A stretch of 64,000 nucleotides of DNA from a virus (lineage: Duplodnaviria; Heunggongvirae; Uroviricota; Caudoviricetes): the IMG/VR virus record IMGVR_UViG_2622736468_000003; one strand, 5' to 3'. The notes beneath the pieces are model-generated. The model was given only the letters and a program-made list of their open reading frames with translations, had not been told where the DNA came from and ran no database searches. Both the position numbers and the translations under genes were made by a program. Shown piece by piece: positions 17,144 through 22,099 of the stretch. Every line of letters begins with the position of its first letter. Within the stretch, counting starts at the first letter, position 1.

Positions 17144-17337
17144 TGAATGCTAAAATTCAAACGATACCTGAATTACTGATCTGCACCAGGGGAAATCAGA
17201 CAGAAGTCGCCAGAATACTGAACTGCAATCGTGCCACAGTCAGAAAATACATTGATGATAAAGATGCGAAAAAGCACGCCGTCGTCAATGGCGTCCTTAT
17301 GGTTCATCGCGGATGGGGTAAAGATACTGATGCGTGA
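17140..17337 (+). CDS. ninH: NinH
   Basis: [25 protein letters not shown]...VLMVHRGW. Confidence 0.7.
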
Positions 17338-17710
17338 TATCCGGCAGGTTCTTGAGCGCTGGGGGGCATGGGCGGCAAATAACTATGAGGATGTTACATG
17401 GTCGCCCATTGCTGCCGGATTTAAGAGGCTGATCCCCGAAAAAGTAAAATCACGTCCACAGTGTTGTGACGATGACGCGATGATTATATGCGGGTGCATG
17501 GCTCGCCTTAACAGGAACAACAGCGATCTGCATGACTTGCTGGTGGATTACTACGTGTTGGGGGAGACGTTCATGGCGCTGGCCCGTAAGCATGGATGCT
17601 CTGATGGAACTATCGGTAAAAAATTACAGAAAGCGGAGGGCGTGGTTGAAGGGATGTTAATGTTACTTGGTGTCAGACTGGAAATGGACCGATATGCGCA
17701 ACGCCTCTGA
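17330..17710 (+). CDS. Q: Q late-gene antiterminator
   Basis: ATG overlaps ninH stop; 126 aa with [16 protein letters not shown] zinc-binding segment; last gene of the nin region. Confidence 0.7.
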
Positions 17711-17841
17711 CAGGAGGCGTTTGCCGTTCACTATGTGAAGTGTGTCAATTTGTGAGCGTTATGCTGTTTACTTTATAGTACAGGGACGTAAGAGTTATCT
17801 ACCTGTTAATAACATATATACAACAATGAACAGGGGGCAAA

Positions 17842-18435
17842 ATGGACATTGAAGATTTTCTGGAGGCGGAAGACAATGATCTGTCTCTGTGGAATGATGA
17901 TATTTTAAGCATTGACTGGTTCGTTATCCTCAAAGAGCTTTTGAAATACCAGAACAGGTTAAAGTTAAACTATTCAGAATTACTTCTGCTGGCTAATTTT
18001 GTTTCATTTCACCAGGACGTAGATTCGCAAACATTACCATCAATATCTCTTTTTGCCACCAGAATGCGTGCATCTCGTGCCATTATAGAAGAAGGCTTTC
18101 AACGCCTGGAGGAGAAAGGGATGTTGCAGAAGATAAGTTATGCTCAAATCGGTCATGATTATGATTTGCGGAACGTTTATGACATCAAGCCATTAATTCG
18201 TAAGTTAATTGAGGTGCTGAAAACCGAGTATGATAAAAAGCACACTTGCCCCCTCTGCGGCAAAATAGCTGTCTCTGATGAGGAAATTGAGAAAAAATTC
18301 GGATTCAGAATTTGCGGGAATAAGAAAAGGCCGCAAAGCTGGTGCCGTTCATGCAGAAGCACGAAACAACGCAGACTGAATTCATCGCTAATTGGCAAAA
18401 AAAAGCCCCGAAAATCTCCGCCCGAGGTGGTGTGA
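17842..18435 (+). CDS. hypothetical protein with winged-helix-like N-part and C-terminal CxxC...CxxC zinc ribbon, in the stx/moron slot
   Basis: 197 aa; visibly AT-rich; CPLCGK...CRSCRS. Confidence 0.55.
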   Translation: MDIEDFLEAEDNDLSLWNDDILSIDWFVILKELLKYQNRLKLNYSELLLLANFVSFHQDVDSQTLPSISLFATRMRASRAIIEEGFQRLEEKGMLQKISYAQIGHDYDLRNVYDIKPLIRKLIEVLKTEYDKKHTCPLCGKIAVSDEEIEKKFGFRICGNKKRPQSWCRSCRSTKQRRLNSSLIGKKKPRKSPPEVV

Positions 18436-18548
18436 AGCGTCGCGGAACCCCGGATTCCACTCACGATTGAACGAGGTGCTAAAAAGTATTTTACGTACGT
18501 AAAAATCTGCATATCATGATAAGAGTGGTTACATTGCCACGCTGCTTA

Positions 18549-18572
18549 ACCCGCCGATGCGCGGGTTTTTTT
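18549..18572 (+). terminator. rho-independent terminator (tR'-like position)
   Basis: CCCGCcgatgcGCGGG followed by TTTTTTT. Confidence 0.55.
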
Positions 18573-18752
18573 GTACCCAGAATCCTGTGAGCTATACGGA
18601 AAGTACACAGAAAGGAAGGTACGACCGCAATTAATAACAAAATCTTAAAAATCTCATATGGCACTATTAGTTTTCTAAATATTGTATATTTTAAGTATTG
18701 CAGGATAACCCTGTAACGAAGTTTGCGTAACAGCATTTTGCTCTACGAGTTT

Positions 18753-18782
18753 GCCAGCCTCCCCTGGTGGCTGGCTTTTTTT
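18753..18782 (+). terminator. rho-independent terminator
   Basis: GCCAGCCtcccctggtGGCTGGC followed by TTTTTTT. Confidence 0.6.
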
Positions 18783-19267
18783 GTATCCGTTCAACGGGAA
18801 TGTTACATACCTCACAATTAAGTCAGTTGAATGTTGTCTGCCCGGATGAGAATTTGTTAGAAAAAACTGCATGGTGAATCCCCCTGAGCGGAGGGGCGAC
18901 TGGTGACGGTATAATCTCTGATTATCAAAACGAGAATGACGCGGGTTTAGTGGCACCGGGCTGAACTCACCGGGAGGCACCCGGCACCATGCAATGGCAC
19001 ATAGCGCCACTCTCCAGCCCCTCTCCGGAGGGGCTTTCTTATGGACAAAAAAGCCCGCGCTGGGAGACGCGGGCGGCAAGGAATAAACAATGAAACGTGA
19101 AGTAATATTTCAGCTGGCGAATAATACCCCATAGTAATCACTCTGCGCAACTGCGCGACCTTTTTCGAATTGCGGGCTGTAGTCTCCCTTCTGCCATTGT
19201 CCTGTAACTTCCGGACTTCAGCCCGCTCCTTATTTTACTCACAATATTATCCCGGCCGGGAGGATTC

Positions 19268-20831
19268 ATGGCATTTAAACACTATGATGTTGTCAGGGCG
19301 GCGTCGCCGTCAGACCTTGCGAAACGAATAACTCAAAAACTGAAGGAAGGGTGGCAGCCTTATGGTAGTGCGCTGATTTCGACAGCTGGTTATGGTGCGG
19401 AGTTCATCCAGCCAGTTGTGAGTGAGGGGAGCATCTCATCACCAGAGGAGCCAGGCAACCGTCCGACGACCTCAGCGCCTTCTGTTGCGCCAGAATATTA
19501 CTATGTGATCGCGCTTGCTGGTCAGTCCAATGGTATGTCATACGGTGAGGGACTGCCATTACCGGATACATTCGACAGCCCTGATCCACGTATTAAACAG
19601 TTAGCGCGTCGCAGTACGGTGACACCGGGCGGTGCAGCATGCAAATATAACGACATCATTCCGGCGGACCATTGTCTGCATGATGTGCAGGACATGAGCC
19701 GTCTTAACCATCCGAAAGCGGACCTGTCAAAGGGGCAGTACGGAACCGTGGGGCAGGGGCTGCATATCGCCAAAAAACTGCTGCCGTTTATACCGGCGAA
19801 TGCGGGCATTCTGCTGGTTCCGTGCTGTCGTGGTGGTTCAGCGTTCACCACCGGAGCTGATGGCACATACAGTGACGCGAGTGGCGCCTCGGAGAATTCA
19901 ACCCGCTGGGGTGTGGACAAGCCGCTGTATAAGGACCTTATCGGTCGAACAAAAGCGGCACTGGAGAAGAACCCGAAAAATGTGCTGTTTGCCGTGGTGT
20001 GGATGCAGGGGGAATTTGATTTTGGCGGTACGCCGGCAAATCATGCCGCACAGTTTGGTGCGCTGGTTGATAAATTCCGTGCAGACCTGGCGGATATGGC
20101 AGGCCAGTGCGTCGGTGGCTCTGCTGGCGGTGTTCCCTGGATATGCGGGGACACGACGTATTTCTGGAAGCAGAAGAACGAATCCACGTACCAGACGGTG
20201 TACGGCAGCTATAAAAATAAAACGGAAAAGAATATCCATTTCGTACCGTTCATGACCGATGAGAACGGGGTGAATGTGCCGACGAACAAACCGGAAGAAG
20301 ACCCGGACATTCCGGGTATCGGTTATTACGGTTCGAAATGGCGTGACAGCTCAGCCACCTGGACGTCACAGGACAGGGCGAGCCATTTCAGTTCATGGGC
20401 TCGCCGTGGGATTATTTCCGACCGTCTGGCAACGGCGATTCTGAGCTGCGCGGGTAAGTCTTCTGCGTTTGTTAATGGTACTGCCGGGGTGGTTGTTCCA
20501 GACAGACCGGTTACCACCTCAGAGTCTGTAATTTTTTACGATGCCAAAAAAGCTACAGACAATCAGCTGAAACCCTATGGCTGGGACGGTGTGTATGGCA
20601 GGCGCACACTGGTTGATGACAGCGGCAATAAAGCTCTGCGAATTGAGAAAAATAACAGCGCGAAATCCTGGTCAATGTACTGTGATATTGCTGCAGACAA
20701 GGCAAAACTTTTACTGGAAAAAGGCGGGGAAATTGCTGTCCGGTTTAAAATCCCCGAAAACGTCAATCTTGAGACAACCAGAAACAAGTATGCCTTTGGT
20801 TTGTACTGGCGAATAGCGGAATGGCCGGGTG
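19268..20831 (+). pseudogene. nanS-p: prophage sialate O-acetylesterase (NanS-p-like), 5' part interrupted by IS629
   Basis: GQSNGMSYGEG motif of the SGNH/DUF303 family; reading frame runs into the IS629 terminal repeat. Confidence 0.6.
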
Positions 20832-20885
20832 TGAACCGCCCCGGGAATCCTGGAGACTAAACTTCCTGAGAAAGAGGTAAACAGG

Positions 20886-21212
20886 ATGACTAAAAATACT
20901 CGTTTTTCCCCCGAAGTCCGTCAACGGGCAGTCCGTATGGTTCTGGAAAGTCAGAGCGAATATGACTCACAATGGGCGACAATTTGTTCCATTGCTCCAA
21001 AGATTGGCTGTACGCCGGAGACTCTGCGTGTCTGGGTTCGCCAGCATGAGCGGGATACCGGGGGCGGTGATGGAGGGCTCACCACCGCTGAACGTCAGCG
21101 TCTGAAAGAGCTGGAGCGTGAAAATCGTGAACTGCGCCGCAGTAACGATATCCTTCGCCAGGCTTCCGCTTATTTTGCGAAGGCGGAGTTCGACCGCCTC
21201 TGGAAAAAATGA
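20886..21212 (+). CDS. IS629 OrfA
   Basis: 108-aa HTH/leucine-zipper ORF typical of IS3-family orfA. Confidence 0.8.
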
Positions 21213-22099
21213 TGCCACTGCTGGATAAGCTGCGTGAGCAGTACGGGGTCGGACCGCTATGCAGCGAACTGCATATTGCCCCGTCAACGTATTACCACTG
21301 TCAGCAACAGCGACATCATCCGGATAAACGCAGTGCCCGTGCGCAGCGCGATGACTGGCTGAAGAAAGAGATACAGCGCGTATACGATGAAAATCACAAG
21401 GTATACGGTGTGCGTAAAGTCTGGCGTCAGTTGTTACGGGAAGGTATCAGAGTGGCCAGATGCACTGTGGCACGTCTCATGGCGGTTATGGGACTTGCCG
21501 GTGTTCTCCGGGGTAAAAAGGTCCGTACGACCATCAGCCGGAAAGCCGTTGCCGCAGGCGACCGCGTAAACCGTCAGTTCGTGGCAGAACGACCTGACCA
21601 GCTGTGGGTGGCTGATTTTACTTACGTCAGCACATGGCAGGGCTTCGTCTATGTGGCGTTCATCATTGATGTGTTTGCCGGATACATCGTGGGGTGGCGG
21701 GTCTCATCGTCCATGGAAACGACATTCGTGCTGGATGCACTGGAGCAGGCGTTATGGGCCCGTCGACCGTCCGGCACGGTCCATCACAGTGATAAAGGTT
21801 CTCAGTATGTATCGCTGGCCTACACACAGCGGCTTAAGGAAGCCGGATTACTGGCATCAACAGGAAGTACAGGCGACTCGTATGACAACGCGATGGCGGA
21901 GAGCATCAATGGTCTTTACAAAGCGGAGGTAATACACCGTAAGAGCTGGAAAAACCGGACAGAAGTGGAGCTGGCCACACTCACGTGGGTGGACTGGTAT
22001 AACAATCGACGATTGCTGGAAAGGCTGGGCCATACTCCTCCGGCAGAAGCAGAAAAAGCTTATTATGCTTCCATCGGAAACGATGATCTGGCAGCCTGA
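21209..22099 (+). CDS. IS629 OrfB (DDE transposase)
   Basis: 296 aa; overlaps orfA as in IS3-family elements. Confidence 0.8.

Follow-up and report, generated by a model that had tools for sequence, protein, structure and literature searches.

What is an AT-rich gene doing directly behind the antiterminator gene Q, in the stretch from Q through the late promoter pR' and the terminator tR' to stx that sets the amount of Shiga toxin made by Shiga toxin (Stx) phages? The question is raised by the 64,000-nt stretch of Caudoviricetes DNA analysed here (IMG/VR record IMGVR_UViG_2622736468_000003; hereafter the window), which encodes a protein of 197 amino acids (aa) at this place. A first-pass annotation of the DNA took the open reading frame (ORF) for a gene in the slot that normally holds stx, which would be transcribed in lysogens if pR' lay between Q and the ORF. 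In our analysis the ORF is a real but uncharacterised gene, which homology to mapped sites places upstream of pR', at the end of Q itself.

A real gene behind Q

The two genes concerned are the following:

17330..17710 (+): antiterminator gene Q, short 126-aa allele (Pfam Phage_antitermQ, E 3e-51)
17842..18435 (+): 197-aa protein gene, equal to ORF1 of Shigella phage 7888 (WP_032207288; PHROG 34160)

The 197-aa ORF begins at the first start codon past a stop, with a ribosome-binding site (AGGGGG) at 17832..17837, and is separated from Q by 131 nt. Its GC content, like that of the module described below, is 0.36-0.41 against about 0.50 in Q, and its C-terminus contains the motif CPLCGK...CRSCRS. 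The coordinates, the gap to Q, the drop in GC and the cysteine-rich ending thus all agree with the first-pass annotation. Eight intact alleles of the gene were read from other loci. Among the five alleles compared, the ratio of nonsynonymous to synonymous substitution rates (dN/dS) was 0.18-0.34, and it stayed below 1 in each tested segment of the gene. Because of this constraint, the match of the protein to Pfam DnaD_N (34.8 bits, cut-off 27) and the existence of full-length homologues, the ORF is a gene rather than a chance frame. The 1,557-nt region 17711-19267 is 100% identical to Escherichia coli O10:H32 NMBU-W12E19, in which the gene is annotated as a "hypothetical protein". A literature search found no study of the gene, though database records of it date back to the sequencing of phage 7888.

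The late promoter and the toxin slot lie past the gene

Five features past the gene define the late regulatory region of the window:

18490..18524 (+): late promoter pR', with -35 TTTACG at 18490-95, -10 TATCAT at 18512-17 and start at about A18524 (promoter scan and Sakai homology)
18524..18781 (+): StxS-like pR' leader RNA of ~258 nt (homology to Sakai StxS; fold z-score -2.5)
18548..18574 (+): first "terminator", a 7-bp GC-rich stem followed by T7, at +25..+51 of the pR' leader (terminator scan)
18751/18753..18781 (+): terminator tR', hairpin 18753..18774 with T-run 18775..18781 (terminator scan; the phage 7888 annotation has a terminator at the corresponding site)
18785..18798 (no strand): empty cargo slot of 14 nt (against Sakai Sp5, the gap is 18785..18811)

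The window segment 18478..18784 is ~95% identical to the stretch of Sakai Sp5 that contains the Q 3' end, pR', StxS and tR'. StxS is a lambda 6S-type pR' leader RNA; in both Stx phages of Sakai, Sy et al. 2020 (PMC7547250) mapped where the transcript from pR' begins and where it ends at tR', a distance of 258 nt. Measured backwards from the final T of the Sakai terminator, this length reaches an A located 7 nt past TATCAT, which is A18524 in the window; the published Sakai coordinates belong to an older genome version, and the 142-nt offset used here was inferred from gene positions. A promoter scan also chose this TTTACG/TATCAT pair at 18490..18517. On the other side of the gene, the Q-ORF spacer does not resemble the pR' region: their local alignment scores 14, and shuffled sequences average 15.4. 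A pR' between Q and the ORF, which the first-pass annotation considered, is rejected on this score together with the homology to the mapped Sakai promoter, and the proposed Q-independent, constitutive transcription of the gene from pR' in lysogens fails with it. Since pR' lies downstream, the ORF is outside the constitutive pR'-tR' transcript. It also follows from the position of pR' that the two hairpins with T-runs, which are indeed present as first described, both fall inside the pR' leader, the second of them being tR'.

The first hairpin, kept in Sakai Sp5, the O104:H4 prophage and POCJ13, is the first terminator-like site past the 197-aa ORF, and belongs to the resident pR' leader rather than to the inserted module. 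It has the look of a canonical intrinsic terminator, and Sakai Sp5 shares it even though the leader as published extends over 258 nt. Candidate roles would be a partial terminator for pR', an end for transcripts coming from Q and the ORF, or an aid to the loading of Q.

The slot that holds toxin cargo in related phages lies past tR', at 18785..18798, and is empty in the window; the ORF, which ends at 18435, lies downstream of neither pR' nor tR', and its assignment to the stx slot has to be withdrawn. The slot, between the equivalents of window positions 18784 and 18799, is filled by about 1.49 kb that include stx1AB in POCJ13 and E. coli 2013C-4282. Sakai Sp5 carries about 1.79 kb with three tRNAs and stx2AB there, and E. 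coli 06-00048 carries tRNAs with TerB. The stx and tRNA cargo of the relatives therefore does not sit where the 197-aa ORF sits. Moreover, the ORF and stx1 coexist, with the ORF upstream, in 7888, POCJ13, 75/02 and several genomes of Shiga toxin-producing E. coli (STEC). With the ORF upstream of pR' and the stx cargo past tR', there are two separate cargo slots. The absence of tRNA and toxin genes from the interval stands: ARAGORN found no tRNA in the whole 64 kb, and the window has no stx ORF.

A module inserted into the 3' end of Q

Pairwise BLASTN comparisons with Sakai Sp5 and the stx-negative prophage of O104:H4 C227-11 delimited the foreign segment:

17697..18477 (+): inserted module of 781 nt, comprising a new Q 3' end, the spacer, the 197-aa gene and a 42-nt tail (pairwise BLASTN and GC)
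18478..18502 (+): relic, the last 25 nt of the 144-aa 933W-type Q gene with its stop codon (aligned to the annotated Q 3' ends of the O104:H4 prophage and Sakai Sp5)
17700..17721 (+): 8-bp hairpin across the Q stop codon, AACGCCTC-6 nt-GAGGCGTT, lacking an evident T-run (inverted-repeat search)

DNA homology to both prophages extends to 17696 and resumes at 18478, and between these blocks they have only 43 nt, located inside the 3' end of their 144-aa Q. The 781-nt module therefore replaced 43 nt of a 933W-type Q gene. The first ~122 aa of the window Q are of the 933W/Sakai type, 88-89% identical to the 144-aa Q of Sakai Sp5 and the O104:H4 prophage, whose last ~19 residues are absent here. 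Through the module, Q was shortened by 18 residues (126 aa vs 144 aa), its last residues were changed, and it was separated from its cognate pR' by an extra 781 nt. The domain match identifies it as an antiterminator of the 933W/Sakai type with a cognate pR' still present. The 126-aa allele was accompanied by the 197-aa ORF in every locus read, and among phages Q and spacer as a whole were found only in POCJ13 and 75/02. The -35 element of pR' overlaps the 25-nt relic of Q. The hairpin across the Q stop codon was not called by the terminator scan. A 13-nt direct repeat at the right junction (18211/18473) was set aside, one such match being about the chance expectation in 1.8 kb.

The drop in GC, the presence or absence of the module in otherwise collinear phages, the clean junctions and the rarity together mark the module as acquired cargo, so that the horizontally acquired look noted in the first-pass annotation is borne out. 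Of 5,426 complete E. coli genomes, 19 carry the module, in one copy each, and 50,697 phage records yielded three distinct phages that have it, namely the Shigella Stx1 phages 7888, POCJ13 and 75/02. Genomes of Shigella dysenteriae have annotations for shortened forms of the ORF (123-152 aa), which suggests a decayed copy of the module in a defective S. dysenteriae prophage. An exhaustive profile search recovered the two-domain layout described below in just a handful of cases beyond the E. coli and Shigella alleles.

A winged helix joined to a widespread zinc ribbon

Three segments could be distinguished in the 197-aa protein:

17911..18234 (+): winged-helix domain of the DnaD N-terminal-domain type, residues ~24-131 (Pfam DnaD_N)
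18241..18357 (+): C4 zinc ribbon, residues ~134-172, CPLCGK...QSWCRSCR (cysteine conservation; predicted local distance difference test score, pLDDT, of 78-87 in the model)
18358..18432 (+): basic, lysine/arginine-rich tail, 3' of the zinc ribbon

The description of the product as an uncharacterised winged-helix and zinc-ribbon protein is upheld by the DnaD_N match, the model and the conserved cysteines, of which C136, C139, C168 and C171 are kept in all full-length homologues and far beyond. AlphaFold models reached a pLDDT of 65, and up to 73 with a deeper alignment, and showed a winged helix with a trailing helix, a two-hairpin zinc ribbon, and a basic helix and tail. Foldseek returned nothing from the PDB or BFVD at E <= 0.001, and the NCBIfam library gave no usable match. 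The N-terminal winged-helix oligomerisation domain of DnaD (PF21984) is present, but there is no Pfam match past residue 131 and hence no DnaD/DnaB-type C-terminal DNA-binding domain; the protein is therefore not a DnaD. The protein is moreover found in mobile elements of Enterobacterales, which do not use DnaD. A winged helix paired with a zinc ribbon is the domain combination of archaeal TFE/TFIIE-alpha.

The zinc ribbon belongs to a mini-domain with the pattern CPxCGKxA..EIExxFGFR..QSWCRxCR, which in Clostridia, Myxococcota, Nitrosopumilus and other archaea makes up small proteins by itself (50-90 aa), is repeated in tandem, or closes larger proteins at their C-terminus. Neither Pfam nor the PDB has an entry for it, and the Lar family matches it only below threshold. 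Nitrosopumilus proteins that finish with it include one of 946 aa and ResIII helicase type and one of 521 aa with a sub-threshold PD-(D/E)xK nuclease match, fusions that would suit a nucleic-acid-binding module. At loci of Nitrosopumilus and relatives (L030, L034, L038, L039, L049, L051 and L086), the QSWCRxCR domain ends proteins of 830-1,025 aa, besides the 521-aa protein; among the large proteins of this type that were scanned, the 946-aa protein of L034 gave a Pfam match, which was ResIII. One library protein of 3,179 aa (P0018) has 34 stretches matching the mini-domain.

A resemblance of this zinc ribbon to that of a 238-aa ORF downstream of gene N, also suggested in the first-pass annotation, did not withstand comparison (BLASTP E 0.36 over 11 residues; profile comparison E 0.054, probability 1%). 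The profile comparison lines up CxxCG...CxxC in register between the two proteins, and the likeness is best read as generic C4 spacing, not as demonstrable homology. The 238-aa ORF (418..1134, -), downstream of N (1135..1518, -, Pfam N_peptide), has no Pfam match and carries the C4 pattern CTRCG...YCKKCES. Homology of the 197-aa protein to the phage's own replication protein was looked for as well, and neither comparison found any.

Plasmid and fimbrial relatives

The closest relatives outside the phages, with ~41% identity over the full length (E 1e-42), are found on about 100 Enterobacterales plasmids, and among those listed nearly all are 2.4-7 kb in size. The gene is probably of small-plasmid origin. 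In all seven tiny plasmids examined (2.4-4.4 kb), a perfect palindrome with arms of 21-24 bp lies 10-60 nt before the start codon. These palindromes form two sequence classes, which track two subfamilies of the protein. A palindrome at this position, in classes matching the subfamilies, is as expected of the operator of an autoregulating, DNA-binding dimer. Three of the small ColE1-type plasmids additionally have tandem arrays with units of 11, 12 or 33 bp, ~410-540 bp downstream of the gene and before the RNAI/ori region, their palindromes being 46-50 bp long (plasmid coordinates):

L011: palindrome 718..763, array 1768..1932
L014: palindrome 676..725, array 1852..1956
L015: palindrome 1735..1780, array 2782..2838

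No tandem arrays were found in plasmids L012 and L016, nor near the phage copy. A ColE1-type RNAI is present in eight of the nine plasmid records scanned, one of which also has Rop, and their replicon clusters differ. The gene is therefore accessory and not the plasmid initiator. A role as the sole plasmid Rep protein was considered for the 2,959-bp plasmid, which annotates just this gene, and was ruled out by the ColE1 RNAI there and in seven of the eight other records; these RNAI genes and the lack of arrays near the phage gene likewise set the protein apart from iteron-type initiators.

A second, more distant group of relatives (P0027 and P0031; 22-25% identity, same two-domain layout) is encoded by the first gene before chaperone-usher fimbrial operons. 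Such relatives were seen at loci L019, L020, L022 and L023, one of them in Cedecea, with an NlpC/P60 gene on the other flank.

Expression and proposed function

17750..17779 (+): candidate sigma-70 promoter for the ORF, TTGTGA-18 nt-TATAGT (9/12 consensus positions)

The terminator scan found no terminator-like site on the + strand between 17295 and 18547, and with no terminator in between, the ORF is expected to be co-transcribed with Q. TTGTGA of the candidate promoter is invariant in six of six loci, and the last base or bases of TATAGT differ in two of the six. It could be envisaged that a plasmid-type cargo gene recombined into the 3' end of a 933W-type Q, between Q and pR'. After induction, the N-antiterminated pR transcript would then yield Q and the 197-aa protein together, while the gene's own weak promoter could permit low-level expression in lysogens. 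Without antitermination, ORF transcripts would be expected to terminate either at the 18548 hairpin or at tR'. The winged helix would act as a scaffold forming dimers or tetramers, which together with the zinc ribbon and the basic tail would give an oligomeric protein, candidate targets being host genes or a site in the phage itself, for example the pR'/stx region.

We therefore propose, as a reading with about as much chance of being right as wrong, that the 197-aa protein is an oligomeric, sequence-specific DNA-binding regulator made with Q, its DNA binding, role and timing being predicted from the gene and its relatives. The proposal follows from the domain make-up, the operator-like palindromes of the plasmids, the relatives at fimbrial operons and the DNA enzymes to which the zinc ribbon is fused. 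Several points weigh against it. The long palindrome of the plasmids is absent from the phage copy, which has only a weak inverted repeat at 17802-10/17826-34, and no binding site emerged in the phage. Variable alleles of helix 3 do not covary with the variable upstream sequence, the alleles being mosaic. Beyond DnaD, fold searches returned only generic winged-helix matches, and the DnaD N-terminal domain serves mainly in oligomerisation and contact with DnaA and is not the main DNA binder. The promoter at 17750..17779 is a weak call, from which the ORF may be expressed in lysogens, and the transfer of the pR' start leans on the inferred 142-nt offset, which the exact fit at both ends supports. 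An operator shared with the plasmid palindromes was also sought, and the search gave just a 9-nt AT-rich match (TTAATAACA) that is unconserved among the phage alleles.

It is rather unlikely that the protein is instead a replication or primosome accessory. As a DnaD-like adaptor it would bring in host DnaA, DnaB or PriA at the origins of phages or plasmids, or modulate them there, and could aid replication restart or a switch of replication mode when Q is made. The N-domain is specifically similar to the DnaD N-terminal domain and not just to any winged helix, its PHROG matches (E 1e-5 to 1e-4) pointing to N-termini of helicase loaders of the DnaD-like type and of replication initiators, and the arrays of L011, L014 and L015 lie between the gene and the ColE1-type origin region. 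However, L012, L016 and the phage lack such arrays, a zinc ribbon stands where DnaD has its C-terminal DNA-binding domain, and RNAI in eight of nine plasmid records argues against an initiator; the phage's own replication protein shows no similarity, and the relatives at fimbrial operons do not fit an adaptor of this kind.

A function as counter-defence or defence cargo seems unlikely, whether it would alleviate restriction through a Lar-like zinc ribbon or keep out small plasmids or phages entering the cell. Weak matches to Lar restriction-alleviation (PF14354), of 14.4-16.9 bits for the 197-aa protein and up to 23.8 bits in relatives including several stand-alone zinc ribbons, all fall under the Pfam cut-off of 28.6 bits, and the PADLOC models gave no match to the protein at E up to 0.1. 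In its favour, archaeal enzymes of restriction type carry the zinc ribbon as a fused domain, the gene is common to two kinds of mobile element that both face restriction, and its alleles are mosaic with a variable helix-3 region; yet dN/dS is below 1 in every tested segment, and a position after Q would be late for anti-restriction.

A more specific possibility, quite improbable in our view, is a regulator of the early-to-late switch captured from a plasmid, which would bind at or near pR' or contact RNA polymerase and thereby tune Q-dependent late transcription. If this were true, Shiga toxin 1 output and the timing of lysis would be tuned in the Stx1 phages carrying the gene, and a regulator family built on an unclassified zinc-ribbon domain would extend across ColE1 plasmids, Stx phages and fimbrial operons.

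The arrangement first proposed, with the ORF between pR' and tR' as constitutively expressed, lysogen-benefit cargo in the stx slot, is hardly tenable: a consensus-like promoter at 17750..17779 between Q and the ORF and hairpin terminators past the ORF speak for it, but the homologue of the mapped pR' lies downstream of the ORF, the spacer offers no pR'-like sequence to supply a Q-binding site, Q is 89% identical to the Sakai Q that uses the downstream promoter, and stx lies past tR' in relatives and coexists there with the ORF.

Features downstream of the toxin slot

18841..19046 (+): prophage small RNA of the STnc100 family (Rfam RF02076, 165 bits against a gathering score of 47, full length)
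19268..20860 (+): nanS-p-like gene, 530 aa, with DUF1737 and SASA domains

The STnc100 RNA is encoded in the interval that separates the empty stx slot from the esterase gene, as a neighbour outside the ORF module. STnc100 has been described as a prophage small RNA, and in a 2026 preprint STnc100 and PasD small RNAs are associated with Stx phages as well as with esterase genes. Two terminator-like hairpins on opposite strands (19016..19035, +, and 19074..19053, -) face each other where the STnc100 region has its 3' end. The next gene is nanS-p-like, as first annotated, to judge by its DUF1737 and SASA domains. Past it lies an insertion sequence element of the IS3 family (20886..22099, +), with an HTH_Tnp_1 ORF followed by an rve transposase ORF. 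The nanS-p-like gene product has 530 aa here against 636 aa in NMBU-W12E19, and the esterase gene is therefore interrupted in the window, whose DNA is accordingly not an exact match to the sequence of that strain.

Implications

A regulator made with Q, as favoured here, would act from a place of practical interest, just upstream of pR' and stx1 in clinical Stx1 phages. Shigella Stx1 phages and several clinical STEC strains have the module immediately before stx1, and any effect that the protein or the altered Q may have on late transcription would carry over to the toxin output of those strains. New, as far as we have seen, are the second and rarely used cargo slot within the end of Q itself and the remodelling of Q that accompanies its use. 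The kinship of the 197-aa gene with plasmid and fimbrial genes and the breadth of the zinc-ribbon mini-domain in bacteria and archaea are new as well. For annotation, the positions of pR', the StxS-like leader and the empty toxin slot can be corrected in stx-negative relatives, and the mini-domain, widespread without a Pfam or PDB entry, is a reasonable target for family curation.

Comparison with known systems

The window protein shares with DnaD, the Bacillota primosome protein, the N-terminal domain (PF21984; PDB 2vn2 and 8ojj, the latter the DnaD tetramer), but has a C4 zinc ribbon and a basic tail in place of the DnaD C-domain. The Rep family of pHW126/pIGRK, compared by its published description only, is portrayed with a central winged helix together with a coiled coil, but lacks a zinc motif. 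The same two-domain layout over the full length is found in the "Helix-turn-helix domain-containing protein" of small ColE1-type plasmids (WP_123906182, on the 2,959-bp plasmid p3_005237), a protein that is likewise uncharacterised. The plasmid genes have a perfect palindrome of 42-48 bp just upstream and often tandem arrays downstream, whereas the phage copy has neither.

ORF1 of the Shigella sonnei Stx1 phage 7888 (CAC12886, AJ279086) and its equivalents in the Stx phages POCJ13 and 75/02 are the same gene (83-87% protein identity), located in the same way past a 126-aa Q and before pR'/tR', and likewise without a described function. These three phages carry stx1AB past tR', in the slot that is empty in the window. 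The segment 18524..18781 is the homologue of StxS and contains both hairpins, and no toxin genes follow the leader in the window. The gene resembles lambdoid morons and the stx-tRNA cargo in being a present-or-absent gene of foreign composition in the late regulatory region of a lambdoid prophage, with a GC of 0.36-0.41 against 0.50 and absence from Sakai Sp5 and the O104:H4 prophage. It differs from them in its place, which is not past tR' but upstream of pR' and inside the 3' end of Q, and in the remodelled Q C-terminus that comes with it.

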